Assembly (NCBI GenBank): GCA_043814765.1
Contig: JBDRJQ010000032.1
Coordinates: forward strand, 1-34,707
Direction of reading: 5' to 3'
From: Nanobdellota archaeon
GTDB lineage: Archaea; Aenigmatarchaeota; Aenigmatarchaeia; QMZP01
Length of the DNA: 34,707 nucleotides
Every line of letters starts with the position of its first letter. Position 1 is the first letter of the stretch. This document shows, piece by piece, positions 6,215-27,829 of this stretch. Position numbers and translations under genes: made by a program. The notes under the pieces are model-generated. The model was not told the DNA's origin, ran no database searches, and saw only the letters and a program-made list of their open reading frames with translations.

Positions 6215-7406
6215 ACAGTAACTTTCTTGCTAAAAGAATCATACTGGGTCTTTTAATCATTATATCGCTTAGCAATTTGAACTTTTTTGCCTTGGATAAA
6301 GCAATTAAATCATCACCAGAAAGATAGTCAACAAGCCAGTTGAAGTCATCATCCTTCATTGACTCAACAACTTTTCGCAGTTTTTCTATTTTTTGCAGTT
6401 TTTCTCCGCGCTCGTTCCACCATAACTCATTGTATTTTGAGAGTGCTTCTTTGGATATGTCTCCTGATTTTATGGCTTCTGATGCTACTTCACCGGCTAT
6501 GCGCCCGCCGACAAAAGATTCGGATATGCCGCCGCCATGTATTGGATTAACCTGATGAGCAGCATCACCTGCAACCATAAAGTTGTCCAAAACCATATCC
6601 TTCATTATAGCTCCCACAGGCACTCCGCCTGCATTGAACTCTATTATTGAACCTTTTTTCAGGCCTTCCCTGGAATTTATGAAATCTTTAAGATACTCTA
6701 TGGCTTTTTTACTTGCCCAAGGCTTTCTAACACCAATGCCAACATTAGCGTTTTTTCCACCTTTAGGGAATATCCAAGCATAACCAGCAGGAGCAATTTT
6801 TTCGTTTCCTAGATACAGTTCAAGCCTATACTGATCAACATCAACATTAGCCATTTCAAACTGTGCACAAGAAGCAACATCTTCGTGTTTCAGTGTTGTG
6901 TTTATACCTGCTTCTCTTGCAAGCTTTGACTCAACTCCGTCTGCGGCTATAACTATCTTTGCCTTTACATTCATCTCTTCATTCTGGTGCTGTATTTTAA
7001 CACCAACTATCTTATCTCCGTTTTTTAGTAAGGAAAGCGCTTCTGTTTTAGCCATGACAATTGCACCAGCTTCTGCAGCTTTTCTTGCAAGAAACTTGTC
7101 AAAAATCTTTCTCTCTATGACCCATCCTTCTATGTCATCAAAGTCTGCTCTAACATACCTGCCGTCAGGAGCATAAATAGTAGCTCCTTTTATTGTCTGG
7201 CATATCCATGAAGGATCTGGCTCTATACCCATTCTATCTGCAGCTGATTTAGATAATCCTTCACCACAGCGTTTTGGTGAACCAATCTCTGCACGCTTTT
7301 CAATCATTAAAACGCTTAAGCCTGTTTTAGCAATGGCCTCAGCCGCACCAGAGCCAGCTGGTCCGCCACCAACTACAACAACGTCATATTCATTCTTTAT
7401 GTTCAT
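6213..7406 (-). CDS. Digeranylgeranylglycerophospholipid reductase (geranylgeranyl reductase, GGR)
   Basis: VVVVGGGPAGS FAD motif, IGSPKRCGEG, IAADG.ES, P.GYAWIFPKG, GDAA.QVNPIHGGGI. Confidence 0.93.
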   Translation of the reverse strand: MNIKNEYDVVVVGGGPAGSGAAEAIAKTGLSVLMIEKRAEIGSPKRCGEGLSKSAADRMGIEPDPSWICQTIKGATIYAPDGRYVRADFDDIEGWVIERKIFDKFLARKAAEAGAIVMAKTEALSLLKNGDKIVGVKIQHQNEEMNVKAKIVIAADGVESKLAREAGINTTLKHEDVASCAQFEMANVDVDQYRLELYLGNEKIAPAGYAWIFPKGGKNANVGIGVRKPWASKKAIEYLKDFINSREGLKKGSIIEFNAGGVPVGAIMKDMVLDNFMVAGDAAHQVNPIHGGGISESFVGGRIAGEVASEAIKSGDISKEALSKYNELWWNERGEKLQKIEKLRKVVESMKDDDFNWLVDYLSGDDLIALSKAKKFKLLSDIMIKRPSMILLARKLL

Positions 7407-7573
7407 TTTTTCACCTTTAGCGCATCAACCGGACAGAATCTTACACAAAATTCACAGTCTATACACTTATCACTGCATGTAATGCCATGCTCTAATAACG
7501 TAAGTGCTGATGTTGGGCATACTCCGACACATCCACCACAGCGTGCACATTTGTCCTTATTAACCTCTATCAT
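7403..7573 (-). CDS. 2x[4Fe-4S] ferredoxin (56 aa), translationally coupled to GGR
   Basis: Too short for the ORF track. Manual translation MIEVNKDKCARCGGCVGVCPTSALTLLEHGITCSDKCIDCEFCVRFCPVDALKVKK has two CxxCxxCxxxCP motifs; ATGA overlap with the GGR start. Confidence 0.93.
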   Translation of the reverse strand: MIEVNKDKCARCGGCVGVCPTSALTLLEHGITCSDKCIDCEFCVRFCPVDALKVKK

Positions 7574-7658
7574 AGTACAATAGTTTGCAAATACACATAT
7601 AAACTTTATTAATGCGCCTAAACGAATTCAAAAAGAAAGAAAAAAAAGAAATTGGCTT

Positions 7659-7946
7659 CTATAAAGGCCTTGATTCAATTAATCCGAATAGTTCCAAGGC
7701 GCCAACCACTGTTACAATCAGTAACATTATCCATGCCACCAACTGCAGTATATATGACCCCCATATCATTATTTGGTTTATTCCAAGTCCTGTCCAAACC
7801 GTAAATTCGAATGTTCCTGATAAGAATAGTATCACTGTAGTAAGTACGAGTAGGTTCCATGATTTTACCATTACCTTACTGAGCTTAACGTACTCTAGGA
7901 ATACTACTGCCAATAATATAGCTACTATGTAAATTACGTCTACCAT
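7659..7946 (-). CDS. Small hypothetical membrane protein (about 3 TM)
   Basis: Hydrophobic 95-aa ORF with GGTGA Shine-Dalgarno upstream; co-directional with its neighbours. Confidence 0.7.
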   Translation of the reverse strand: MVDVIYIVAILLAVVFLEYVKLSKVMVKSWNLLVLTTVILFLSGTFEFTVWTGLGINQIMIWGSYILQLVAWIMLLIVTVVGALELFGLIESRPL

Positions 7947-7961
7947 TTAATCACCAAATGT

Positions 7962-8318
7962 TTACACTGTGGGTCTTGCTGCCAATTTGTATATAGCCTT
8001 TAGTGCCACTATCAATGCTGCAGGTGCAACGAATGCTGCTATGTTAGTTACGATGTTAGTTAGGTATACTCCTAAATTCACTATGTCCAAACCACTAAGT
8101 GCGGTTTTAACTAACATAAATGCAATTGCTGCAATCAAGAAAGGCTGTGTTTCTTTTTCATTGATGTTTATGAATCCTACAATAATACCCAAAACAATGA
8201 GTACAATCGTTATCATTCCACCAGTTGCTAGGTCAACAAATCCTGATGCCAATCCTGCTATTATTGCTATGATGACACCTAAAATAAAGGCCCAATGTCC
8301 GTACTCTGTATTAACCAT
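7962..8318 (-). CDS. Hypothetical 4-TM membrane protein
   Basis: WAFILGVIIAII...GIIVGFINI..KE...FLIAAIA...FVAPAALIVALKAI; AGGTGA Shine-Dalgarno upstream. Confidence 0.75.
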   Translation of the reverse strand: MVNTEYGHWAFILGVIIAIIAGLASGFVDLATGGMITIVLIVLGIIVGFININEKETQPFLIAAIAFMLVKTALSGLDIVNLGVYLTNIVTNIAAFVAPAALIVALKAIYKLAARPTV

Positions 8319-12744: not shown

Positions 12745-12842
12745 AATCAAACTTCAATAATCACAAAACGTTATTTAAGGTTTTTGATTAAACCTTTAGA
12801 AAAAAGTTTATGCTATTTAAAATTTCAATACTATAATAGTCC

Positions 12843-13922
12843 ATGGAAAATTTAACTGAAATTGGTTCTGGAGAAAAAATCAGTGAAAGTATCGGAACCA
12901 ATAGAATAGCAGGTTCTAATTGGCCAGTATCAGAGGGTAGGTACGAAGTTGGTGACGAGTCGTCTCCGGTAGCTGTATGCACGATGGCTTCTGTTGACTT
13001 GAAACTTCCAATGGGAAAAATTGCTATCCTAGGAAAATGCGTAACTGAAAACATAGGCATTGAGAAGATTGTAAAAAACATCGTATCGAACCCGAAAATA
13101 AGATTCCTAATCATGTGCGGGAAGATATCAAAAGGTCATTTTGTTGAGCAGGCTATAGAGTCATTGATAGAAAATGGTGTCGATGACCAAATGAACATAA
13201 TAGGAGCAAAAGGGGCAATGCCGTCTGTAAAGAATTTAACAAAGGAGGATGTTGAAAAATTCAAAAAACAGGTTATTCTCATTAACATTGCAGGTGAAGA
13301 AGAACATGAAAAGATATTGGATGTTGTTAAGGCCTGTTATCAAAAAAATCCGGGAGTGTTTGAATACAGCAATGAAAACGAAATTATCAAGGAGGTAAAT
13401 GAAATGGAAGGAGAAGAAATTAAAGCTGCAGAGGCAGAAGTCGCTGCAATGAATATTGGAAGCATAAGAGCTGATGCTTCTTTGCTGTCTTGGAAACAAG
13501 ATGAAAAGGGATTTTTTATAATATGCCCAGATTCTCATAGAAATGAAATAATTGTTGAATATCACGCTCATGATGGTAAGATTTTAGGCACTATAATAGG
13601 AATTAACGCAGAAGAGATATTCAAAACTATTATAGCAAAGAATCTTGTATCAGAAAAGCCTCATTGCGCTTATCTCGGTGCAGAGCTAATAAAGGCTGAA
13701 ATCGCGATGAAAAACAAACTGGATTATATACAGGACAGCGAGCTCATAATACCAACAAAAGTTGAGAAAAGAAGCGAGATAAGAATACACGGGCACAATA
13801 TGGAAAAGAAAACCTACATGACAAAGAATGAAAAGAACAGTCCAGTGTTCATAGAAAAGGTGGATCATGACGAGGATTTGAAAAAAGTTCTGCAGGAAAT
13901 AGGAATGTGCAGGGTTTTTTAG
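12843..13922 (+). CDS. MtrA-like corrinoid-binding domain fused to a C-terminal DUF4346-like domain
   Basis: WPV..G.Y.VGD..SPVAVCT.AS, G.CVTENIGIEKIV.NIVSNP.IRFLI.CG...KGH and IIGAKGA.P are MtrA signatures including the His ligand. The C-terminus D.KGFFII...HCAYLG.EL.KAE.A......YIQD is DUF4346-like. No C-terminal TM anchor. Confidence 0.88.
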   Translation: MENLTEIGSGEKISESIGTNRIAGSNWPVSEGRYEVGDESSPVAVCTMASVDLKLPMGKIAILGKCVTENIGIEKIVKNIVSNPKIRFLIMCGKISKGHFVEQAIESLIENGVDDQMNIIGAKGAMPSVKNLTKEDVEKFKKQVILINIAGEEEHEKILDVVKACYQKNPGVFEYSNENEIIKEVNEMEGEEIKAAEAEVAAMNIGSIRADASLLSWKQDEKGFFIICPDSHRNEIIVEYHAHDGKILGTIIGINAEEIFKTIIAKNLVSEKPHCAYLGAELIKAEIAMKNKLDYIQDSELIIPTKVEKRSEIRIHGHNMEKKTYMTKNEKNSPVFIEKVDHDEDLKKVLQEIGMCRVF

Positions 13923-13932
13923 GAGTGATGTT

Positions 13933-14715
13933 ATGGATGAAAATATGCCACAGGTTCCTTATCAACCATTGGTTGTTGAAGGACAAAATTTAGGTGAAGC
14001 TTGGGAGAGTGCAGTAAGGACTATGATGGCTAAAGGATTTAACAGGTTTATTAAAGCTCCTGAGTATCAAACATGGACAAAAGACTCTCCAATGTTTATA
14101 ATGGTGAAGGATCCTATGGCAGCACCGAGATTTTCTGCTAAGGCTCCGATAACACAAAGCATAGCTGATCAGTATTCAGAAAAGATGTTAAACGGCATGG
14201 AAAAGGAAAAGGAGAACAGTTTCGATTACACTTACTACTCCCGATTGAGACACTATCCCGACTGCATAGTCAGGGCAGGAATGCCCAACGTCTCTGATGA
14301 GCATGAAATGAAACAATATGTTCATAAAGTCTGCGAAGGCAAATGTGTTGTTCAGAGAATTGATCAGGTGGAAAAGGTTATTGAAATACTCAAAAAGGAT
14401 CCGACACGAAGAACAGCTGTCATGCACACATGGATACCAATGCGGGATCTGGCAAAATTCACACCAGAGAGAAAAGATACTTCGTCGCCATGTTTGGTTA
14501 TATGCCATCCTCAGATAGCAGAAGACAAGCTGCATTTTAACATTGTGATGAAAACCAATGACCTGTTCAGCGCATGGCCAGGCAACGCTTACGCATTCAC
14601 AACATTGCAGAAATATATGGCTGACCAGCTAGGCATCGGCGTGGGTCACTACACGCATTTTTCCGTGTCAATGCAGGTTTATGAAGAAGTGTATGAAAGC
14701 GCGAGAAGTGTATAG
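13933..14715 (+). CDS. thyA: Archaeal-type thymidylate synthase (ThyA fold) with divergent motifs
   Basis: FDYTY..RLR, DQV...I..LK.DPTRRTA, catalytic PCL, ND...AWP.N, G.YTH....VYE; AGGAGTGA Shine-Dalgarno. Confidence 0.85.
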   Translation: MDENMPQVPYQPLVVEGQNLGEAWESAVRTMMAKGFNRFIKAPEYQTWTKDSPMFIMVKDPMAAPRFSAKAPITQSIADQYSEKMLNGMEKEKENSFDYTYYSRLRHYPDCIVRAGMPNVSDEHEMKQYVHKVCEGKCVVQRIDQVEKVIEILKKDPTRRTAVMHTWIPMRDLAKFTPERKDTSSPCLVICHPQIAEDKLHFNIVMKTNDLFSAWPGNAYAFTTLQKYMADQLGIGVGHYTHFSVSMQVYEEVYESARSV

Positions 14716-14739
14716 TTAAAATTTAGTGAGGTTAAAAAA

Positions 14740-15315
14740 ATGATACTACCAGATCATGAAATCAAAAAGCTTCTTGTTGAAGGCAGGCTAAAAATAGAGC
14801 CTTTGGATGATCCTGAAAATCAAATACAACCTGCTGGTGTTGATCTTAGACTTGGCAACACGTTTAGGATATTCAAGACATCTGCAGTGCCTTACATAGA
14901 CACAAAAAAGAAAGCAGAAGACTACACAGAATTGGTTGAGATTGAAGACGGAAATCAATTTATAATACATCCCAGTGAATTCGTTTTAGGCTCTGTTAAA
15001 GAATTCATTAAATTGCCTGATGACCTAGTCGGTTCTCTGGACGGCAGATCTGGCATAGGAAGATTGGGCGTATCAATACACACGACTTCATCTTCCATAA
15101 ACCCTGGCTGGGAAGGAATACTTGTTTTGGAGATATCAAACGTGGGAAAGATGCCTGTTGCACTTTACCCAGGAATGCGCATAGCAAAACTTGCATTGCA
15201 TAAACTGTCGTCACCATCAGAAAAACCTTACAACATAAAAAAAGGTGTTCTTTATCACGGTCAAGACAACACAAACATGCAGAGCAAGATTCATGAAGAG
15301 TTTGACGGAAACTAG
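14740..15315 (+). CDS. dcd: dCTP deaminase
   Basis: QIQPAGVDLRLG, F.IHP.EFVL, DGRS..GRLG, PGWEG.LVLE.SN, LYPGMRI, Y.GQ. Confidence 0.93.
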   Translation: MILPDHEIKKLLVEGRLKIEPLDDPENQIQPAGVDLRLGNTFRIFKTSAVPYIDTKKKAEDYTELVEIEDGNQFIIHPSEFVLGSVKEFIKLPDDLVGSLDGRSGIGRLGVSIHTTSSSINPGWEGILVLEISNVGKMPVALYPGMRIAKLALHKLSSPSEKPYNIKKGVLYHGQDNTNMQSKIHEEFDGN

Positions 15316-16917: not shown

Positions 16918-17667
16918 ATGCCAAAACCAGTTTTTGTGATAATTGCAGGCGGCCTTGCTACGCGAATGAAGCCCGTCACAGAAGAGATTCCAAAATGCCT
17001 TATTGACGTTAGTGGGAAGCCACTAATACAGCATCAAGTAGAATATCTAGCTAAAAGAGGCTACAATGATTTCATATTCTGCGTAGCGCATTTAGCAGAC
17101 AAGGTTAAAGAACACTTTGATGATGGCTCTGCTTTCGGTATTAATGTAAAATATTCACACGAGCCAAAGGAGCTGTTAGGAACAGCTGGTGCCGTTAAAT
17201 TCGTCGAGAATATGGTAGGTGATATATGCATAGTATATTACGGGGACAATCTCACAACAATAGATTTTGACAAGGCGCTTGAATTTCACAGGTTAAAGAA
17301 CAGCGACTTTACAGTTCTTCTGCGGCCTCTTCCAGAAGGCTACAAATCTAGTAGCATAATAACCCTTGATGAATCAGGAAAGGTTACAACCTTCTTTGAG
17401 AAGCCTCCACAAGAGGAATTTGATAAGCATGAAGAAGAGAAAATGTACATAAATGACGGCATTTACATAATGAACAGAAACGTGTTCTCACTAATACCTA
17501 AAAACACAAAGTTTGATTTTGCGAAAGATTTGATACCTTTATTGATGGAAAGGAGCATGAATTTCTACGGTTATGTTTCCAGTGAATTTTTTCGAGAGCT
17601 TGGAAGGGTTGAGAAATACGAAAAATTCAAAGAAGAATTAAAGGAAAGAGGTAAGGTATTGGAATGA
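16918..17667 (+). CDS. hddC: Sugar-1-phosphate nucleotidyltransferase, HddC-like (heptose-1-P guanylyltransferase)
   Basis: AGGLATRM.P.T..IPKCL, LLGTAGA, YGDNL, FEKP; operon context with GmhB/HddA/GmhA. Confidence 0.8.
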   Translation: MPKPVFVIIAGGLATRMKPVTEEIPKCLIDVSGKPLIQHQVEYLAKRGYNDFIFCVAHLADKVKEHFDDGSAFGINVKYSHEPKELLGTAGAVKFVENMVGDICIVYYGDNLTTIDFDKALEFHRLKNSDFTVLLRPLPEGYKSSSIITLDESGKVTTFFEKPPQEEFDKHEEEKMYINDGIYIMNRNVFSLIPKNTKFDFAKDLIPLLMERSMNFYGYVSSEFFRELGRVEKYEKFKEELKERGKVLE

Positions 17668-17674
17668 ACATCGA

Positions 17675-18265
17675 ATGGAGCACTATATGAACAAAGCAGT
17701 ATTTTTGGATAGGGACGGTGTTATAAACAGCACCGACGGTAATGCTCCGTTAAGCGCAGACAGGTTTTTTATCATGGACGGCGTATCAGAGGCTATTAAG
17801 AAATTAAATGAAAAAGGATACCTTGTAATTATCGTAACGAACCAACCTGACATAGCAAAGGGTTTATTGACTTTCAAAGGTCTAGAAGAGATGCACGAGA
17901 AGATGAAAAAAATCCTGACAAAAGCTGGCGCGCATCTTGATGCAGTCTACATATGCCCGCACCATCCCACAAAGGGATTTAAAGGAGAAATCCCTGAACT
18001 GAAAATGAAATGCGAATGCAGAAAACCCAAACCAGGACTTCTGCTTCAAGCTATGAAAGAATACAACATTGATTCAGAACAATCATGGATGATTGGTGAT
18101 TCAAAAACAGACATAGTCGCAGGCCAGGCAGCAGGCGTGAGAACGATAAGGGTGACCTGCAGCGAAGGTGCAAAGAGCAAAGAGGAACTAGCGCTTGGCG
18201 AAGTCCGCCCAGACTTAATTGTCTATAATCTGAAAGAAGCTGTTGATTTTATAATAAAATCTTAG
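17675..18265 (+). CDS. gmhB: D,D-heptose-1,7-bisphosphate phosphatase (HAD IIIA)
   Basis: AVFLDRDGVIN, VTNQP, Zn site CPH...CECRKPKPG, MIGDS.TD. Confidence 0.92.
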   Translation: MEHYMNKAVFLDRDGVINSTDGNAPLSADRFFIMDGVSEAIKKLNEKGYLVIIVTNQPDIAKGLLTFKGLEEMHEKMKKILTKAGAHLDAVYICPHHPTKGFKGEIPELKMKCECRKPKPGLLLQAMKEYNIDSEQSWMIGDSKTDIVAGQAAGVRTIRVTCSEGAKSKEELALGEVRPDLIVYNLKEAVDFIIKS

Positions 18266-18277
18266 AATTTTCTCTAC

Positions 18278-18308
18278 TATATAAAGCTTTCGGCGAAAGG
18301 TTTATATA
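18278..18308. promoter_or_regulatory. 31-bp palindrome comprising back-to-back BRE+TATA elements upstream of hddA
   Basis: TATATAAA-G-CTTTCG-G-CGAAAG-G-TTTATATA; each strand reads CGAAAG-n-TTTATATA. Confidence 0.7.
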
Positions 18309-18365
18309 ATTGCGTCATTAATTATAATATTGATTCTTAGTTATTTGCAAATTTTGGTGTAAAAA

Positions 18366-19361
18366 ATGATTGTTACGAGAACTCCTTTGAGAATATCATT
18401 GGGTGGCGGAGGAACAGATTTACCTTTCTATTGCTCAAAGCACGGAGCATCCCTAATAACTGCTGCTATTAACAAATACATTTACATAACTGTTAACAAA
18501 AGAGTTGAAAAAACCATAAAATTAAACTACTCTAAAACAGAGATTGTTGATTCTGTTGATGAAATAAAACACCCGCTAATAAGAGAAGCATTAAAGCTTA
18601 CCGGAATAAGCAAACCTCTGGAACTTCACTCTGTTGCTGAACTTCCTTCAGGAACAGGGCTGGGATCATCACAAGTCTTTCTTGTGGGATTATTGAATGC
18701 CTTGTATTATTACAAGGGGGAGATTGTCTCCAAATACAAATTGGCTGAAGATGCATCACGCATCACAATGGACATACTGAAAGAGCCTTGCGGAAAACAG
18801 GATCAGTACGCTGCATCTTTTGGCAATTTAAACCACCTGAAAATAAACACATCAGGAAAGGTAACTGTTTCACCTGTAAACATTTCACATGAGGACCTGA
18901 AGAAACTGGAAAACAACTTAATGATGTTCTACACAGGCTTTCAGAGAAGCGCTATAGAAATTCTGGAAGACCAGAAAGAAAAATCAGAAAAGCCAAGCGA
19001 AGAAGCAATCTTTGATTATTATCATGAAATAAAAAAAATAGGTGCAGAGAGCTTGAAATGCCTTGAATCTGGAAATCTAAGAAAGTTTGGACAGTGGATG
19101 AACATTCACTGGGATTTGAAAAAGGGGATTTCAACAAAAATGACTAATCCAAAGATAGATGAATGGTATAACATAGCTCTTCAAAACGGTGCGCTCGGGG
19201 GAAAGATTGTCGGCGCTGGTGGCGGAGGATTCTTGATGCTCTATACTGAAACAAGCCACAGCGATATACAGAAAGCACTTGAAAAGGAGGGCCTTGTTAG
19301 AACAGACTTCAAGTTCGACTTTGACGGCACAAGAATTGTATTCAATGGAATGCAGTTTTAG
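18366..19361 (+). CDS. hddA: GHMP-family heptose-7-phosphate 1-kinase
   Basis: RTPLRISLGGGGTD.P, P.GTGLGSS, GKQDQYA..FG, GALGGKIVGAGGGGF. Confidence 0.9.
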   Translation: MIVTRTPLRISLGGGGTDLPFYCSKHGASLITAAINKYIYITVNKRVEKTIKLNYSKTEIVDSVDEIKHPLIREALKLTGISKPLELHSVAELPSGTGLGSSQVFLVGLLNALYYYKGEIVSKYKLAEDASRITMDILKEPCGKQDQYAASFGNLNHLKINTSGKVTVSPVNISHEDLKKLENNLMMFYTGFQRSAIEILEDQKEKSEKPSEEAIFDYYHEIKKIGAESLKCLESGNLRKFGQWMNIHWDLKKGISTKMTNPKIDEWYNIALQNGALGGKIVGAGGGGFLMLYTETSHSDIQKALEKEGLVRTDFKFDFDGTRIVFNGMQF

Positions 19362-19448
19362 GAGGTTAGTATGCATCCTGATTATATTAACAAGTCAACT
19401 GCATGCAATTTTGGGAGAGACAGTATGCACAATGATTACATTAACAAG
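19350..19448 (+). repeat. Diverged tandem duplication spanning the hddA end, RBS and gmhA start
   Basis: atgcagttttaggaggttagtatgcatcctgattatattaacaag (19350-19394) versus atgcaattttgggagagacagtatgcacaatgattacattaacaag (19403-19448). Confidence 0.8.
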
Positions 19449-20036
19449 CACATGACAGAAATAGAAGATATTGTAAGAGATATTGACAGGGAACAAATAT
19501 CCAAAGCTATAGACATACTTTTTGAAGCATGGAAAAATGGAAATAATGTTTATTTTATGGGCTGTGGTGGAAGTGCTGGAACAGCTTCTCATTTCGCTGC
19601 GGATCTTGCCAAGACAACAATTGTGGGTGATAAAAAAAGATTCAGGGCGCATTCGCTTGTAGACAACCCATCATTAAAGACTGCATGGATAAATGATGAC
19701 GGATGGAACTCTGTTTTCAAAGAGCAGATAAGAAACTTCATGCAACCAGGGGATGTGGTTGTTGGCATCAGTGTTCATGGGGGAAGCGGCAAAGGAAATG
19801 CAGGAGACTGGTCACAAAATCTTACTGTTGCAATGCAATTCGTCAAAGAGAATGGTGGTAAATGCATCGGTCTGGCTGGTTTTGATGGCGGCGCTTTTAA
19901 AGAGCTGTGCGATGCCTGCATAATAGTTCCAAAAAATTCAACTCCGCTTGTAGAGGGCTTCCATAGCGACATACAGCACCTAATAATTTTCAGGCTCAAG
20001 GAACTGATAGCAAACTATGAGGATGTAAATGTTTAG
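19371..20036 (+). CDS. gmhA: Sedoheptulose-7-phosphate isomerase (SIS domain); alternative in-frame start at 19425
   Basis: G.GGSA.TASHFAADL, ND.G...VF.EQ, GDVVVGIS, GFDGG, VE..H...H. Confidence 0.88.
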   Translation: MHPDYINKSTACNFGRDSMHNDYINKHMTEIEDIVRDIDREQISKAIDILFEAWKNGNNVYFMGCGGSAGTASHFAADLAKTTIVGDKKRFRAHSLVDNPSLKTAWINDDGWNSVFKEQIRNFMQPGDVVVGISVHGGSGKGNAGDWSQNLTVAMQFVKENGGKCIGLAGFDGGAFKELCDACIIVPKNSTPLVEGFHSDIQHLIIFRLKELIANYEDVNV

Positions 20037-20478
20037 CAATAAAAACAAGGTTGTGGCTGATAACATTATCAACTACACCATATATGACGAGATTGATGTA
20101 GAAGACAGGGTCTTTGTCACATGGAACATGTTTGAAGAAGCAATGGAAACGCTTCACGGAAAACTGATAGACCACCAAAAAGAAAAACAACTGGAGTTTG
20201 ATGCCATATACGCGCCTCCAAGAGGAGGACTGTGCTTAGGAGTTAAGCTTTCATATATGACTAAGATACCACTGATAACAGATCCCAGCAAGGTAACAAG
20301 CAGCACTGTAGTTATTGACGACTGCACAAAGAGCGGCAAAACAATGATGCCGTTCAGAGACAATGTAACACTGGTGATGTTCCAGCATCCCAAATCAGTC
20401 TTCACGCCGACGATATATTATCAGGAGACTGATAAGCAGATAAACTTCTGCTGGGAATCAAAGGATGAAAGGAATTAA
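20029..20478 (+). CDS. Minimal type I phosphoribosyltransferase-fold protein
   Basis: PPRGGL loop and PRPP-binding motif VVIDDCTKSGKT; C-terminal FCWE as in purine PRTases; overlaps the gmhA stop. Confidence 0.75.
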   Translation: MFSNKNKVVADNIINYTIYDEIDVEDRVFVTWNMFEEAMETLHGKLIDHQKEKQLEFDAIYAPPRGGLCLGVKLSYMTKIPLITDPSKVTSSTVVIDDCTKSGKTMMPFRDNVTLVMFQHPKSVFTPTIYYQETDKQINFCWESKDERN

Positions 20479-20574
20479 ACAATTAACCAAAATGATATAG
20501 TTGAATGACTTATGCTGTCTGCATACAGTCGTCTTTAAAATGTTAACAGAGTATATTGGTAACAGAGATGTCTT

Positions 20575-21249
20575 ATGGCTATATTCATAGACTCAGGAAA
20601 TGTAGAAGAGGTAAAGAAGTACATGAACATGGGTATCATTAGAGGTGCAACAACAAACCCAACTATCCTGATGAAGGATGGAGTTACAGGCGGTCTGGAA
20701 GGCATCAAAAAGGTTTCAATAGAAATCGCCAACATAATTGCTCCTTATCCTCTTTCTGTTGAGGTTCTTAACAACGACCCAAAGGGCATGGCTGAACAGG
20801 CAATAGAATTCTCAAAATGGGCAGATAATATTGTTATCAAAATACCAGCTCATGGACCAAACGGCGAGCTGGACAACTTCAATATAATTCATGATCTTGA
20901 AACCAAAGCCAATGTGCGTGTTAACGTAACTGCAATGATGAGTGCACAGCAGTGTTTCCTTGCTGCGATGGCTGGTGCAAGTTATGTTTCTTTATTCTGT
21001 GGGAGAGTTAATAACATGGGACATGATGCAAAAGTAGAGATTAGAAAGCTGAGAAAGCTTTTGGATGAGCATAAACTCAAGGCAAAGATAATCGCAGCTT
21101 CAACAAGAGAAGTCATAAACGTTATAGACTGGCTTGAAGCAGGAGCCCATATAGTTACAGTATTGCCACCTTTCTTGAACGGGATGCTAGTACACCCGTA
21201 CACAAAGGAAACAGTTAAAATGTTCCTGGATGATGCAGTTAAACTGTAA
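20575..21249 (+). CDS. tal: Transaldolase (TalC/MipB class)
   Basis: IFIDS, GATTNPT, LSVEV (Glu), Schiff-base VIKIP, VNVT, YVSLFCGR (Phe, so transaldolase rather than F6P aldolase), AAS.R, HP.T. Confidence 0.9.
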   Translation: MAIFIDSGNVEEVKKYMNMGIIRGATTNPTILMKDGVTGGLEGIKKVSIEIANIIAPYPLSVEVLNNDPKGMAEQAIEFSKWADNIVIKIPAHGPNGELDNFNIIHDLETKANVRVNVTAMMSAQQCFLAAMAGASYVSLFCGRVNNMGHDAKVEIRKLRKLLDEHKLKAKIIAASTREVINVIDWLEAGAHIVTVLPPFLNGMLVHPYTKETVKMFLDDAVKL

Positions 21250-23769: not shown

Positions 23770-25278
23770 ATGAAATTCATGTTCGTTTGTATGGGGTATG
23801 AAAACCTCTCTGCACAGCAGCTATCAGCAGTGCTGAAACAAAAGGGCCATGAAGTGGATCTGGCTTTTGATCCGGCGCTGTTTGATGACAAGATGTATTT
23901 CTATTATCCGGATCTTCATAAACTCCTTAGTGACAGAAATCGTGTTATAAAGAAAATAGTAGACAGTAAGCCAGATGCAATCGGATTCACTGTTTTTACA
24001 GATAATAATGAATGGGCATGCGACATTGCAAAGGAAGTGAAGAAACAGCTTCCGGACACTCCCATAATATTCGGTGGAATCTACCCTACAACATGCCCTG
24101 AAGTTGTGATAAAAAATGATTTTGTGGATATTGTTTGTGAAGGAGAGGGTGAAGAATCCCTGCCAGAGCTTCTTGACAGCATGCAGAAAGGTAAGATTGA
24201 TTACAAAATAAGAAATCTTTGGTTCAAAAAAGATGGCAAGATTATAAAAAATCCACAAAGGCCTCCTGTGGATATTGAGAAATTGCCTTATTATGATAAA
24301 GAGTTGTTTGAGGGGCACGTGCCTCTTGACAGGGTTTACCTGACTGTAATAGGAAGAGGCTGCCTGTTTGGATGCTCTTTCTGTTCGCAGAACTTCTTAA
24401 GGAAGTTCAATAAAGGATTGGACAAAAGAATCAAGTCTGTAGATAATGTGATGAGAGAACTGAAGATAATGAAGGAAAAATACAATTACAGAGAAGTGGA
24501 TTTCAAGGACAACATATTGACAATGAACAAGGAATGGGTTATTGAACTGCTAGACAGATACAAAAAAGAGATTGGTGTCCCTTTCAGGGCTCTAAGCCAT
24601 GTTTTATGCATGGATTTGGAGATAGCAAAAGCTTTAAAGGGAGCAGGATGCCACAGAGTGCAGTTTGGCATACAATCGCTTAACGAGGAAACGAGAAGAA
24701 AGCATCTGTTAAGAACTGAAACAAATGAGGAAATAGAAAAGGCTCTTAGAGCATGCGATGAAGCAGGACTGGAATACTCATGCGATCATATGTTTGGTCT
24801 TCCTGGAGAGACTGAGGAAGATCAACTGCTGGCTGCAAATTTCTATAAAACTCTTAAGAAGTGCACAAGAGTGACATGTTTCTGGACCACGTTCTTCCCA
24901 AAAACAGATCTTGTTGCTATAGCAAGGAGAAGAAACGCTATCACTGATAAGGATATAGAAGAGATAAACAGAGCCAAAGCTGGTTACTATTATCTTGAAG
25001 GGGCTGTAAAGGATAAAGAATTGAAAAAACACTTCAGAAATTATCAGATGCTTTTCAGGCTTATGCCTATACTGCCTGAGAAGGTGGTTGACTTTATACT
25101 AAGAAATAATTTTCATAAACACCTTTATCTGCTTCCACAAAGAGCAATATTGCTTCCAATAGATCTGATTGTTTCTTTTATAAAAAAGGATAATTCCGCA
25201 TTCCAGTACATGAACTACTACTCTCTGCATCTAAATAAAAAAATAAAGAGAAGGCTAGGATTTAAGGTGGATAAATGA
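23770..25278 (+). CDS. Cobalamin-binding radical SAM enzyme (class B methyltransferase-like) 1
   Basis: N-terminal B12-binding domain (LSAVLK..GHEV, IIFGG..PT, GEGE); RGCLFGCSFC; MFGLPGET. Confidence 0.88.
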   Translation: MKFMFVCMGYENLSAQQLSAVLKQKGHEVDLAFDPALFDDKMYFYYPDLHKLLSDRNRVIKKIVDSKPDAIGFTVFTDNNEWACDIAKEVKKQLPDTPIIFGGIYPTTCPEVVIKNDFVDIVCEGEGEESLPELLDSMQKGKIDYKIRNLWFKKDGKIIKNPQRPPVDIEKLPYYDKELFEGHVPLDRVYLTVIGRGCLFGCSFCSQNFLRKFNKGLDKRIKSVDNVMRELKIMKEKYNYREVDFKDNILTMNKEWVIELLDRYKKEIGVPFRALSHVLCMDLEIAKALKGAGCHRVQFGIQSLNEETRRKHLLRTETNEEIEKALRACDEAGLEYSCDHMFGLPGETEEDQLLAANFYKTLKKCTRVTCFWTTFFPKTDLVAIARRRNAITDKDIEEINRAKAGYYYLEGAVKDKELKKHFRNYQMLFRLMPILPEKVVDFILRNNFHKHLYLLPQRAILLPIDLIVSFIKKDNSAFQYMNYYSLHLNKKIKRRLGFKVDK

Positions 25279-26774
25279 AAGTGGTTCTAATCCACTTGAA
25301 AGAGAATTTTACACCAGTACCTCCTACTGGTCTGTTATACGTAGGCACAATGCTAAAAAAGGAAGGCCATGAAGTACGCGTATTTGACGCAAACCTCAAG
25401 GAGCAGAAAGAAGTCATTGAAGAAATAAAGAAGATTGATCCTGATATGATAGGTTTCAGCGCAATGACAACATCTTACTCTATAACACAAGCGTTAAACA
25501 AAATGCTAAGAAAGGAGCTTCCCAACGCTTATTATTTTTGGGGCGGTGTTCATGCCACATCACTGCCTGAAGAGACAATGAAGGACAATGAACTGGATTT
25601 CCTTATTTACGGAGAAGGAGAGCTAACAATGGTCGATGTCTGCAAAAAAATAAAGGGTAAAAAGAAAGATGGCAAGCGCGGTATAGATTTGAAGGGCATA
25701 AATGGTGTGTATTATTTTGATAAAGGTAAATTGCATAAAAATCCTCCTCCAAAATATATTGAGGACTTGGACTCAATACCTATTCCTGACAGGTCGCTTC
25801 TAGGGAATTTTAAATGGTATCTGTCGCCTCCTGGAATACTCCGTGGTAAGTTTTACTACGGAATCACTACAATGTACACAACAAGAGGCTGCCCTTACCA
25901 GTGCATATTCTGCTCCAGCAAGATTGTTCACGGTTCAAGGATAAGAAGGAGATCCGTGGAAAACGTCCTCAAGGAGATGAAGTACTTAAAAGATGAGTTT
26001 GGTGTAACAGGCATATATTTTAACGATGACACTTTCGCAACTGACATTGTATGGCTAAAGAATTTCTGCAAGAAACTGAAGGAGAGCGGTCTCAACATGG
26101 TTTGGGGTTGCCAGACAAGAGCCAATATTGCATCCAACATTGAGATTCTTGAAACAATGAAAGATGGCGGATGCGTTCAGGTTGATATAGGATGCGAGAG
26201 CGGTTCTGACAAGATATTGAAAAACTTGAAAAAGGGCATAACAGCTGACATGATAATGAAATCCTTTGAAAACTTAAGAAAGGTTAAAATGGAAACCTTT
26301 GCGACATTTATTGTCGGAAACCCGGGCGAGACAATGGAAGATATTAAGATGACAGAAGAGATTGCAAAACATGCTCCTGGCGGAGTCAGCTTCCTTATAC
26401 TCGTACCTTATCCAGGCTCGCCGTTATACAAAATGGCTCATGACAACAAGTGGTTCGTTGATGAAAACGTAATGTTTGATGAGAGATGGACTAACAAGCA
26501 GTCTGACACTCCTGTGATGGAAGCCAGTTTCAGAGCAGAAGAGCTTGTCAGAATCAGGGCAGACCTGCAGAACCAGTTCTTTGTTCAGAACAATCTGCAG
26601 ACCATACTGGCTTTTTTAAGAAGCCCGTACTTTCTTTCAAAAGCAATATACACTGTTGTAAAGCATCCTATATTCATACTAAAATCCGCAAAAAGAGCTG
26701 TAGCAAAAAGGAAAGCAATGGATTTATTGGAAGATCTTTATCAGAAATTCAATGAGGACATGAGAACGGTTTAA
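25275..26774 (+). CDS. Cobalamin-binding radical SAM enzyme (class B methyltransferase-like) 2
   Basis: PP.GLLY, GGVHAT..PE, GEGE; TRGCPYQCIFC; FNDDTF; GCESGS; FIVG.PGET; PYPGS. Confidence 0.92.
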   Translation: MKVVLIHLKENFTPVPPTGLLYVGTMLKKEGHEVRVFDANLKEQKEVIEEIKKIDPDMIGFSAMTTSYSITQALNKMLRKELPNAYYFWGGVHATSLPEETMKDNELDFLIYGEGELTMVDVCKKIKGKKKDGKRGIDLKGINGVYYFDKGKLHKNPPPKYIEDLDSIPIPDRSLLGNFKWYLSPPGILRGKFYYGITTMYTTRGCPYQCIFCSSKIVHGSRIRRRSVENVLKEMKYLKDEFGVTGIYFNDDTFATDIVWLKNFCKKLKESGLNMVWGCQTRANIASNIEILETMKDGGCVQVDIGCESGSDKILKNLKKGITADMIMKSFENLRKVKMETFATFIVGNPGETMEDIKMTEEIAKHAPGGVSFLILVPYPGSPLYKMAHDNKWFVDENVMFDERWTNKQSDTPVMEASFRAEELVRIRADLQNQFFVQNNLQTILAFLRSPYFLSKAIYTVVKHPIFILKSAKRAVAKRKAMDLLEDLYQKFNEDMRTV

Positions 26775-27829
26775 TTTTGTTCAGCAGCTTTCTTGAATCT
26801 TCTTTCTTTTATTGTGTTCTTGAAATAATTCATTATAACACTGAAGTCCCTGTCTATCATTAGGTTGTAGTCATTGAAAGCCATGAAAGCGAAACAGCTC
26901 TTGCATGTGTTGTGTTTTTGTAGGTTTTCCCAGGCCTCCTTGAAGCCGACTTCTAGGAAATTCTTAGCTGGGAATTCTGTATCAATCATCTGCGAGCATG
27001 GATAAACCTTTCCGCTAGAGTCTATGATGCACATGAATCTTCCTGCATGACATTTTATTTTATCAAGATCATTTGATAGCTCTGATTCTTGCATGGATTT
27101 CTTTTTGTAGTCAGGCCACTCCTTTGTGTGTTTGAGTGACTTGAAAGACAGCATGATTGGGTAGCCTTTTTTCTTATAATCTATAATCTTCTGAACAGCT
27201 TTTTTGTAATCCTCATTCTCTGCTATAATACCAGAACCTGTTTGGAAGAATGGAAGAAGCCATTCTGTAACAAACCCCATTTTCTTTGAGAGCTCGAAGA
27301 TTGTGTCAATGGAATGAATATTTTGTTTTGTTATAGCAGTGCTTGTATGAACATTAACGCCATTGTCCTTTGCAAACTGTATTGCGTCAAGAACCTTTTT
27401 GAAAGAGCCTTTGCCCTTTCCCAAATCATGAGACTCTTCATCTCCGTCTATGCTTATGCAGAGCGTGTTTAATTTTTTAACTGCCTCTATCTTTTCACGG
27501 ACAAGATGCCCATTAGAATTCATGTTGCAAACCATGCCTTTTTTTCTTGCATAGCCTACAAGATATTCAATATCATCTCTTGTTAGTGGTTCTCCACCAC
27601 CGAAATTGATTCTTTTTGTTCCCATTTCAGCGAGTTCATCAAAAAGTTTTGTCAAATCTTCTGTAGTGAAATTTTTAACATCCTTTCTGCCCCAGTATAT
27701 GCCATAACAATAAGGGCAGCGTAGATTGCAAGTATTAGTGGTGTTAATGTGTACAACTATAGGCTTAGGTTTGGATGATTTGGCCAATAGCAAACTCTTC
27801 ACTAAACCAGCTTTGTCAAGTAGTTCCAT
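26771..27829 (-). CDS. Radical SAM protein with twitch/SPASM-type C-terminal domain
   Basis: CNLRCPYC, GGGEPL, SIDG, C.AG...C.ID..G.VYPC...CKSC. Confidence 0.9.
   Translation of the reverse strand: MELLDKAGLVKSLLLAKSSKPKPIVVHINTTNTCNLRCPYCYGIYWGRKDVKNFTTEDLTKLFDELAEMGTKRINFGGGEPLTRDDIEYLVGYARKKGMVCNMNSNGHLVREKIEAVKKLNTLCISIDGDEESHDLGKGKGSFKKVLDAIQFAKDNGVNVHTSTAITKQNIHSIDTIFELSKKMGFVTEWLLPFFQTGSGIIAENEDYKKAVQKIIDYKKKGYPIMLSFKSLKHTKEWPDYKKKSMQESELSNDLDKIKCHAGRFMCIIDSSGKVYPCSQMIDTEFPAKNFLEVGFKEAWENLQKHNTCKSCFAFMAFNDYNLMIDRDFSVIMNYFKNTIKERRFKKAAEQN

Follow-up and report, generated by a model that had tools for sequence, protein, structure and literature searches.

Three adjacent genes at positions 12843-15315 of the window (the whole stretch of 34,707 nucleotides, from contig JBDRJQ010000032.1 of a Nanobdellota archaeon) probably encode a thymidine monophosphate (dTMP) synthase in which a soluble MtrA-DUF4346 protein is the functional partner of a short, divergent ThyA-fold enzyme; the third gene encodes the dCTP deaminase Dcd. 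The fuller reading that we favour, and put forward tentatively, is that the genes form one operon constituting the dTMP synthesis module of the cell, with MtrA-DUF4346 as an obligatory partner and probably a methyl carrier. That the corrinoid itself is the direct methyl donor is a proposal that we hold more loosely. To our knowledge, two thymidylate routes are known, ThyA with dihydrofolate reductase (DHFR) and ThyX, and both need methylene-folate. An earlier reading of the window (the original prediction) held that the MtrA-DUF4346 protein is repurposed for dTMP synthesis by a route distinct from these two, and linkage, gene fusions and distribution support this well as a genomic inference.

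The original prediction called the operon an orphan, which is wrong. The MtrA-DUF4346 protein has 464 relatives at E<=1e-3, and the best 120 of these all carry both domains and come from Nanoarchaeota, Aenigmarchaeota and Patescibacteria/Parcubacteria. In a set of 43 loci (one genome per species), 34 have a gene for a ThyA-like protein (E 1e-18 to 1e-149) next to that for MtrA, these coming from DPANN archaea and bacteria of the Candidate Phyla Radiation (CPR), and 29 have Dcd, so that the linkage proposed from the window is conserved in two domains of life. The gene order in CPR bacteria is dcd-mtrA-thyA, set in a pheT-gyrB-nusG-rplK ... gatB neighbourhood, whereas DPANN archaea have mtrA-thyA-dcd behind smc. 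Since both order and flanks differ between the two groups, the trio has persisted through rearrangement. Thymidylate kinase follows in six of the CPR loci and a DeoC-like aldolase in nine. Nine loci lack ThyA: three are Methanotrichaceae loci with MtrA and MtrH, two (L015 and L041) are cut by contig ends, and the other four are L003 (a 2.7-kb contig), L006, L037 (MtrA without DUF4346) and L040. L040 (5244-7784), from a Geobacteraceae record, encodes a 394-aa MtrA-DUF4346 protein with an N-terminal extension of about 110 aa and no ThyA nearby. This protein scores 335.8 bits against NF002128, under the cut-off of 568, and its gene lies after an ArsR-type regulator and before two unnamed small genes. 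Here Proteobacteria-like bacteria put the two-domain protein to another use.

The survey of fusions that the original prediction had proposed found parts of the module joined in some organisms. Dcd-MtrA-DUF4346 is one open frame in L025, L034 and L036, and Pfam recognizes three domains in the L025 protein (534 aa). An exhaustive search with the ThyA-like protein gave 3487 relatives at E<=1e-3 and 7 at E<=1e-30, and three of those seven (P0122, P0125 and P0126; 501-540 aa) are single-chain MtrA-DUF4346-ThyA proteins. A second architecture, commoner and more distant, has the ThyA core nested between an MtrA-like domain and DUF4346. Two further proteins add nucleotide-precursor enzymes to the module: P0145 (733 aa) joins the nested MtrA-like/ThyA/DUF4346 arrangement to a dCMP/cytidine deaminase domain, and P0078 (398 aa) carries MtrA-DUF4346 and NUDIX domains according to precomputed Pfam assignments.

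The distribution of the module is complementary to that of the known routes. A sample of 151 genomes of the window's phylum was searched for DUF4346, ThyA, ThyX, DHFR and serine hydroxymethyltransferase (SHMT); layouts were assigned from match coordinates and open-frame lengths and tabulated from hand-entered lists. Because the genomes are related and mostly 85-98% complete, absences mean "not found" and the counts are not independent trials. Separate, adjacent genes as in the window occur in 14 genomes from 6 families. Scored against the known routes, as the original prediction had suggested, none of the 14 has ThyX, canonical ThyA or DHFR, and one has SHMT (G068, 2.3 kb from its module). Among the 96 genomes negative for DUF4346, ThyX is present in 74, canonical ThyA in 8, DHFR in 8 (strong matches; 4 more are weak) and SHMT in 59; 82 have ThyX or ThyA with DHFR, 7 have a divergent ThyA-like match and in 10 no synthase was found. 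The 34 genomes with the nested fusion include 1 with canonical ThyA, 1 with a strong and 3 with a weak DHFR match, and 13 with SHMT. In all, DUF4346 is found in 55 of the 151 genomes, and 51 of the 55 have a divergent ThyA-like match; the 55 also include G040, G084 and five genomes with unfused, non-adjacent genes or no ThyA-like match (ThyX in two of the five). In 10 of 10 genomes a canonical ThyA goes together with a strong DHFR match, the two genes being neighbours, and SHMT accompanies ThyX in 64 of 89. On the side of ThyX, many matches in the phylum consist of two Thy1 domains in one frame of 410-590 aa, and G057 (C4:11254-16091) has such a tandem ThyX frame of 536 aa next to SHMT and a nested-fusion gene.

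Smaller searches gave a similar list of negatives. ThyX, DHFR and SHMT were not found in any of five CPR carriers, which include one complete chromosome of 689 kb. Pterin_bind, FolD and archaeal MetK were found in none of five DPANN carriers, and four CPR carriers plus the window genome (G000) yielded Formyl_trans_N once and bacterial MetK twice. The window genome comprises 859,335 bases in 39 contigs and is 88.2% complete. No ThyX, SHMT, FolD or Pterin_bind was found in it, and DHFR (PF00186) had no match at E<=1; reductases of the FolM/PTR1 and DmrB/DmrX types were not searched for. The original prediction had weighed a DHFR gene or a full mtr operon elsewhere in the genome: DHFR was not found, and for the mtr operon there is a single MtrA match and no MtrH, MtrB-G not having been searched for genome-wide.

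The MtrA part of the first protein looks like a working cobamide binder. It scores 166.1 bits against PF04208 (cut-off 25), and an AlphaFold2 model of the whole protein (mean predicted local distance difference test score, pLDDT, 76; both domains confident) matches 5laa in Foldseek with a target-normalised template modelling (TM) score of 0.90, a root-mean-square deviation of 1.3 A and 49% identity (E 1e-43 in the sequence alignment). The structure 5laa is the cobalamin-bound cytoplasmic MtrA homologue of Methanothermus fervidus, and the sections of that work drawn on here describe His84 of MtrA as the lower axial cobalt ligand and Glu54 as hydrogen-bonded to His84 (Wagner 2016, PMC4915002). 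The counterparts in the window protein are His99, the KGH histidine that the original prediction had picked out as the corrinoid ligand and that aligns with the GH of 5laa, and Glu69. Both are invariant in 20 of 20 aligned homologues from archaea and bacteria. Among the best 120 of the 464 relatives, G-H-F occurs in 119 and E-N in 120; the odd one out for G-H-F, P0044, matched neither motif pattern and was not viewed by eye. T-E-N and G-H are also kept in all three MtrA-DUF4346-ThyA fusions.

The first protein is set apart from the methanogen Mtr complex in several ways. Its maximum Kyte-Doolittle hydropathy over 19 aa is 1.32, so that it has no transmembrane helix, in agreement with the missing membrane anchor of the original prediction. 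The absence of mtrB-H and DHFR genes from the window was likewise borne out by a scan of 37 open reading frames (ORFs), which turned up no Mtr subunit and no DHFR. The protein also fails TIGR01111, the equivalog model of Mtr-complex MtrA (162.2 bits against a cut-off of 249.15). The single MtrA match in the genome, the failure to find MtrH and the lack of a membrane helix together indicate that the protein is not a subunit of the methanogen Mtr pump. MtrA homologues occur in bacteria and non-methanogens, and the same sections of the structural paper assign them no function (Wagner 2016, PMC4915002).

The second gene encodes a divergent member of the ThyA fold. The protein scores 51.7 bits against Thymidylat_synt PF00303 (cut-off 24.3), and hhalign aligns its profile with that of canonical ThyA (eight sequences from the same phylum) with a probability of 96.1% over 113 columns. 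The best-scoring named family is TIGR03283 at 134.8 bits, under the cut-off of 174.55, so that membership fails; the relatives P0121, P0122 and P0125 score 119-135 bits against the same model, and P0130, P0133 and P0137 pass it with 186-196 bits. In both domains of life the ThyA-like proteins share 57-75% identity; averaged over columns it is 70%. Cys187 aligns with the P-C-H motif of solved and canonical ThyA and is invariant in 22 of 22 sequences, as are R159-R160, D210 and N218; Y250 is kept as well. We take Cys187 to be the nucleophile, R159-R160 to be the phosphate pair for deoxyuridine monophosphate (dUMP), N218 to confer uracil specificity and D210 to be the counterpart of the Asp that binds the pterin ring in E. 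coli ThyA structures. Lys207 replaces the conserved Arg of the R-S-x-D / (R/K)-(S/T)-N-D motif. The chain stops about 45 residues short, at canonical position ~233 of 278, and the absent C-terminal segment is presumably the part that closes over folate. The ThyA insert has two invariant Cys, C111 and C138. They were considered as a redox pair, and this idea was rejected: the two are missing from the fused P0122, P0125 and P0126 and so are not essential, and no catalytic role is given to them. Among other short ThyA-like proteins, P0148, P0198 and P0240 contain inteins (Intein_splicing; one has LAGLIDADG in addition).

The DUF4346-like C-terminus noted in the original prediction is a genuine PterinBD-DUF4346 domain (PF14251; 67.8 bits against a cut-off of 29.6). 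Modelled alone it reaches a pLDDT of 94.4, and it resembles the DUF4346 parts of other architectures with structural TM scores of 0.78-0.91. VIA-align against 48,161 chains gave no convincing solved analogue: the best Z was 5.9, within the range of chance arrangements, for ribosomal proteins and EVH1/PTB-like folds, and Foldseek with the whole model of the first protein returned MtrA matches and none for DUF4346. The Atlas places DUF4346 in five contexts: after MtrA, after pterin-binding barrels resembling dihydropteroate synthase (DHPS; methanogens and Asgard archaea), after ThyA with or without MtrA, after 4Fe-4S ferredoxins (192-aa proteins of Woesearchaeota) and alone. Their common denominator is thymidylate or pterin chemistry. 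A stand-alone DUF4346 gene in G040, encoding 119 aa, lies divergent against a canonical ThyA-DHFR gene pair, which links DUF4346 to thymidylate genes even without MtrA. The ferredoxin fusion hints that whatever DUF4346 serves may need electrons. An unproven reading is that DUF4346 is an adaptor or a cofactor-pocket piece for ThyA-type enzymes. Overlapping Pfam ranges in the nested fusions had suggested homology between DUF4346 and the C-terminal part of canonical ThyA that the short enzyme lacks; hhalign does not support it (probability 0.15%).

Behind DUF4346, a linker with pLDDT <50 leads to a short C-terminal tail. Two conserved tails occur in the best 120 of the 464 relatives, R-[VAIL]-F in 32 and [WF]-[FHY]-D in 55, and the MtrA-DUF4346-ThyA fusions have only a short spacer between DUF4346 and ThyA. 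Conserved tails after a disordered linker, and their replacement by a short spacer in fusions, suggest that the tail may be a docking peptide.

The mechanism that we propose would begin with Dcd, which would supply the deoxyuridine nucleotide. The short ThyA-fold protein would be the catalytic subunit, whose Cys187 would add to C6 of dUMP and so activate C5. Soluble MtrA-DUF4346, the obligatory partner, would hold a cobamide His-on as in MtrA (His99/Glu69), and the one-carbon (C1) unit would ride on the cobamide as methyl-Co(III). Docking of this carrier on ThyA would fall to DUF4346 and the C-terminal tail. The dUMP enolate would then take the methyl group, as homocysteine does in MetH, leaving Co(I), which a donor such as S-adenosylmethionine (SAM) or a methyl-pterin would re-methylate. 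In such a cycle no dihydropterin would arise for DHFR to reduce, and with no call for methylene-folate SHMT would be dispensable too. The methyl-Co(III) mechanism would thus account for the strict conservation of the ligand pair, for the missing DHFR and SHMT and for the fusions. The identities of the domains, the ligand residues, the layout of the operon, the conserved linkage, the fusions and the distribution complementary to ThyX and ThyA/DHFR are observed; the physical partnership, the loading with cobamide, the methyl transfer to dUMP and the re-methylating donor are inferred. A co-fold of two copies of the ThyA-like protein with residues 25-359 of MtrA-DUF4346 scored 0.00 and carries no weight either way.

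Several observations weigh against a methyl-carrying corrinoid. In all 15 representatives of the nested fusions the Glu is missing and the aligned column holds no His (in P0247 one stands at the next column), which implies that a ThyA/DUF4346 pair can work without a His-on cobamide. Judged from these sequences, cobamide is not universal in the wider family; the loss does not extend to the subfamily of the window. ThyX is also present in 12 of the 34 nested-fusion genomes, 11 of which have SHMT as well. No corrinoid methyl-loading enzyme was found in the conserved neighbourhood, and MetK of either archaeal or bacterial type was not found in the window genome, where absences mean "not found" at its level of completeness. 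D210, the counterpart of the pterin-binding Asp, is invariant, and the contexts of DUF4346 (DHPS-like barrels, ferredoxins, a place beside ThyA-DHFR) fit a pterin or redox role as well as docking. The window genome has an MTHFR-like gene (methylenetetrahydrofolate reductase). On the supply side, no homologue of the DUF4430 and DUF6580 proteins of CPR loci (see below) was found in the window genome, and no cobalamin riboswitch reached the gathering score in 12 CPR loci (138,584 bases).

The missing loader and methyl source, the His-less nested fusions, the invariant Asp and the pterin and ferredoxin fusions keep alive a pterin-dependent, externally reduced mechanism, which we consider unlikely. 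The short ThyA would still take its methylene from a salvaged folate or methanopterin-like carrier and DHFR would be dispensable. MtrA-DUF4346 would present or retain the pterin via DUF4346 and/or give two electrons via Co(I), like FADH2 in ThyX, and the pterin would leave in the tetrahydro form or be re-reduced. The fusion of DUF4346 to DHPS-like Pterin_bind domains and to 4Fe-4S ferredoxins, its place beside the ThyA-DHFR pair in G040, the pterin-binding Asp and nested fusions that work without the His all speak for such a mechanism, but a source of methylene-pterin was not found (SHMT in 1 of 14 DPANN and 0 of 5 CPR genomes; FolD and Pterin_bind in 0 of 5), and a ligand pair of the MtrA methyl carrier that is so strictly kept is most in keeping with a methyl carrier. 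Additionally, we know of no corrinoid that serves as a hydride donor. The MTHFR-like gene, which means that some pterin chemistry may be possible in the window genome, cuts both ways. It turned up in one of the five DPANN carriers searched first and in 2 of 10 carriers in all (G000 and G131), and with so few carriers it was rejected as a part of the module. Genes upstream of it (including L045:5342-6307 and 7195-8085) encode a RimK-family ATP-grasp ligase with weak MptN/CofF-like scores, an MscS-like channel and an unnamed 297-aa protein.

It is improbable that the genes are merely co-located, with MtrA-DUF4346 doing an unrelated cobamide job (such as storing B12, or passing it on to B12 enzymes like the radical SAM enzymes or ribonucleotide reductase) while ThyA works alone on a salvaged cofactor. 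Such a job would suit the B12-dependent radical SAM genes in the window, the ribonucleotide reductase gene that precedes the module in L038 and the MtrA-DUF4346 genes without a ThyA neighbour in L006 and, beside ArsR, in L040. However, MtrA-DUF4346 is covalently fused to ThyA in two domain orders and to Dcd, the linkage outlasts a change of order and flanks between bacteria and archaea, and a divergent ThyA-like match accompanies DUF4346 in nearly all genomes that have it (51/55). Least probable is that the ThyA-fold enzyme is a pyrimidine C5-modifying enzyme of another kind, for instance a hydroxymethylase, with dTMP coming from salvage: its best solved match is the CMP 5-hydroxymethylase 5b6d (E 2.1e-06), it falls below the TIGR03283 cut-off and the 10 of 96 DUF4346-negative genomes without any synthase found make salvage-only life seem possible in the phylum, but Asn218 aligns with the Asn that specifies uracil in ThyA, Dcd and thymidylate kinase are its neighbours and its distribution is complementary to ThyX and ThyA/DHFR.

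Signs that cobalamin is in use speak for the favoured reading. Two tandem B12-binding radical SAM genes in the window indicate that the organism uses cobalamin elsewhere; they adjoin a convergent SPASM-type radical SAM gene (23770-27829 for the group). Eight CPR loci have a DUF4430 gene directly upstream of dcd, and ten have a gene for a DUF6580 membrane protein there. DUF4430 is described, in the portion of the source used here, as the C-terminal domain of transcobalamins (PMC4350170). The two genes may import B12, with DUF6580 conjecturally a transporter component; phmmer searches of these upstream genes against the PDB gave nothing useful and NCBIfam assigned no family.

The layout of the trio in the window is that of a compact operon (Table 1). 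The three ORFs (359, 260 and 191 aa) are co-directional and tightly spaced, as the original prediction had described; they run on the + strand, 10 and 24 nt apart, and the next gene 3' of the trio is convergent. The third protein passes the equivalog test for Dcd (TIGR02274, 200.6 bits against a cut-off of 92.8) and scores 158.9 bits against Pfam DCD PF22769. TATTTAAAA, taken straight from the letters, is a putative archaeal promoter that would give a leaderless or short-leader operon transcript. Together with GGAGTGAT and GTGAGGT, the signals upstream of the three starts would fit one operon with a leaderless first gene. Farther along the window (16918-21246), genes for an NTP-transferase, a HAD phosphatase, a GHMP kinase, a SIS-domain protein and a transaldolase form a run that resembles the nucleotide-activated heptose pathway. 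This run separates the module from L10e/GlmU-like genes, which directly follow the module in related archaeal loci.

Table 1. Features of the module, with related genes in the window and in other loci; positions refer to the window unless another record is named
Feature	Position	Strand	Basis
Gene 1, soluble MtrA-DUF4346 protein, 359 aa	12843..13922	+	ORF; Pfam MtrA and PF14251
Gene 2, divergent short ThyA-fold enzyme, 260 aa	13933..14715	+	PF00303
Gene 3, dCTP deaminase (Dcd), 191 aa	14740..15315	+	TIGR02274, Pfam DCD
TATTTAAAA, TATA-box-like, ~25 nt 5' of first ATG	12814..12822	+	read by eye
GGAGTGAT, Shine-Dalgarno-like, 4 nt 5' of ThyA start	13922..13929	+	read by eye; putative function
GTGAGGT, Shine-Dalgarno-like, 5' of dcd start	14726..14732	+	read by eye; putative function
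MtrA cobamide-binding Rossmann-like domain, aa 24-192	12912..13418	+	Pfam, 166.1 bits
Glu69 codon (T-E-N), counterpart of MtrA Glu54	13047..13049	+	alignment to 5laa
His99 codon (K-G-H-F), counterpart of MtrA His84	13137..13139	+	alignment to 5laa and 8q3v
PterinBD-DUF4346 domain, aa 219-298, three strands and two helices	13497..13736	+	Pfam
C-terminal tail after low-confidence linker, ends ...GMCRVF, possible docking peptide	13860..13919	+	sequence
Cys187 codon (S-S-P-C), counterpart of ThyA catalytic nucleophile	14491..14493	+	alignment to P-C-H motif
Two tandem B12-binding radical SAM genes (502 and 499 aa)	23770-25275 and 25275-26771		
Divergent MTHFR-like gene	G000 contig C8, L045:8114-8986	+	52.5 bits
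DUF4346 gene beside ThyA-DHFR pair, three genes	G040:C1:57900-60100 (L050): 97-567, 564-1496, 1478-1837	-, -, +	

No description of an MtrA-DUF4346/ThyA module was found in the literature, subscription journals and supplements lying outside the search, and none was found of MJ0107, slr0651 or TIGR00284. The parts come from known superfamilies (MtrA, ThyA and Dcd), and no paper within the search joins a ThyA fold to a corrinoid protein; the failed TIGR01111 and TIGR03283 tests set the two proteins apart from Mtr-complex MtrA and from methanogen ThyA. For many CPR bacteria and DPANN archaea, in which neither DHFR nor ThyX was found and SHMT mostly was not, the module appears to be the only candidate synthase. 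The boldest reading, which we regard as doubtful, is a third, cobamide-dependent class of thymidylate synthase, with direct methylation of Cys-activated dUMP from methyl-Co(III) and no folate oxidised, folate possibly being unused altogether. By extension, DUF4346 would be a general adaptor that docks a domain carrying C1 units or electrons (a corrinoid domain, a DHPS-like pterin barrel or a ferredoxin) onto a short ThyA.

If the module is indeed the synthase of these organisms, it would offer either new B12 chemistry (methyl transfer to a nucleotide carbon by a ThyA fold) or a new kind of pterin recycling, and the DNA synthesis of these symbionts would be tied to vitamin B12 from hosts or communities. 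In archaeal extracts that form dTMP, the enzymes responsible have never been purified or identified, according to the part of a recent account used here (Filee 2023, PMC9931769). The module would offer a way into the workings of the short ThyA enzymes of archaea, a matter dating to the 1990s. Krone is said to have reported in 1994 an isolated methanogen enzyme as a "putative" thymidylate synthase, and a general adaptor role of DUF4346 would explain why it was only putative.

Compared with known systems, the module differs first from the canonical ThyA and DHFR cycle (EC 2.1.1.45 / 1.5.1.3), in that carriers of the window's layout lack DHFR (0/14) and nearly always SHMT (1/14). ThyX is likewise DHFR-independent, but its fold is unrelated to the ThyA of the module, it uses FAD/NADPH and methylene-folate, it usually occurs with SHMT in this phylum and its distribution is the complement of that of the module (0/14 against 74/96). 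With canonical ThyA the window protein shares the fold, the nucleophile Cys, the Arg-Arg pair, the Asp, the Asn and the Tyr, but its N-terminal half is not alignable and the folate-lid C-terminus is absent. It is closer to the methanogen-type TIGR03283 proteins, which we take to be of the MJ0757 type, in having a short ThyA core that ends soon after the conserved Tyr. It differs from them by an insert of about 35-45 aa after Y-P-D, a 7-aa insert before S-S-P-C and the Lys in place of the motif Arg, and by being always paired with MtrA-DUF4346.

The corrinoid partner shares the His/Glu ligand pair with MtrA of the MtrA-H complex and with the cytoplasmic homologues (5laa, 5l8x and 8q3v), and like the cytoplasmic homologues of methanogens it is soluble. 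Unlike MtrA of the complex, it has no transmembrane helix and is encoded in a genome in which MtrH was not found, and it adds a C-terminal DUF4346 domain and a tail. The DUF4346 domain is shared with the DHPS-like proteins of TIGR00284 from methanogens and Asgard archaea (44.4 bits for the first protein against the C-terminus of that model; structural TM 0.84-0.91), in which the N-terminal partner is a pterin-binding TIM barrel rather than a corrinoid domain. A mechanistic analogue, though not a relative, is MetH: by our proposal the module would, as MetH does, use a protein-bound His-on cobamide that shuttles a methyl group to a nucleophile and cycles between Co(I) and CH3-Co(III). In contrast to MetH, PF02310 B12-binding and Pterin_bind domains were not found in the three proteins (E<=0.01) and no SAM-reactivation domain was found in the module proteins or related carriers, and the acceptor would be a carbon enolate instead of a thiolate.

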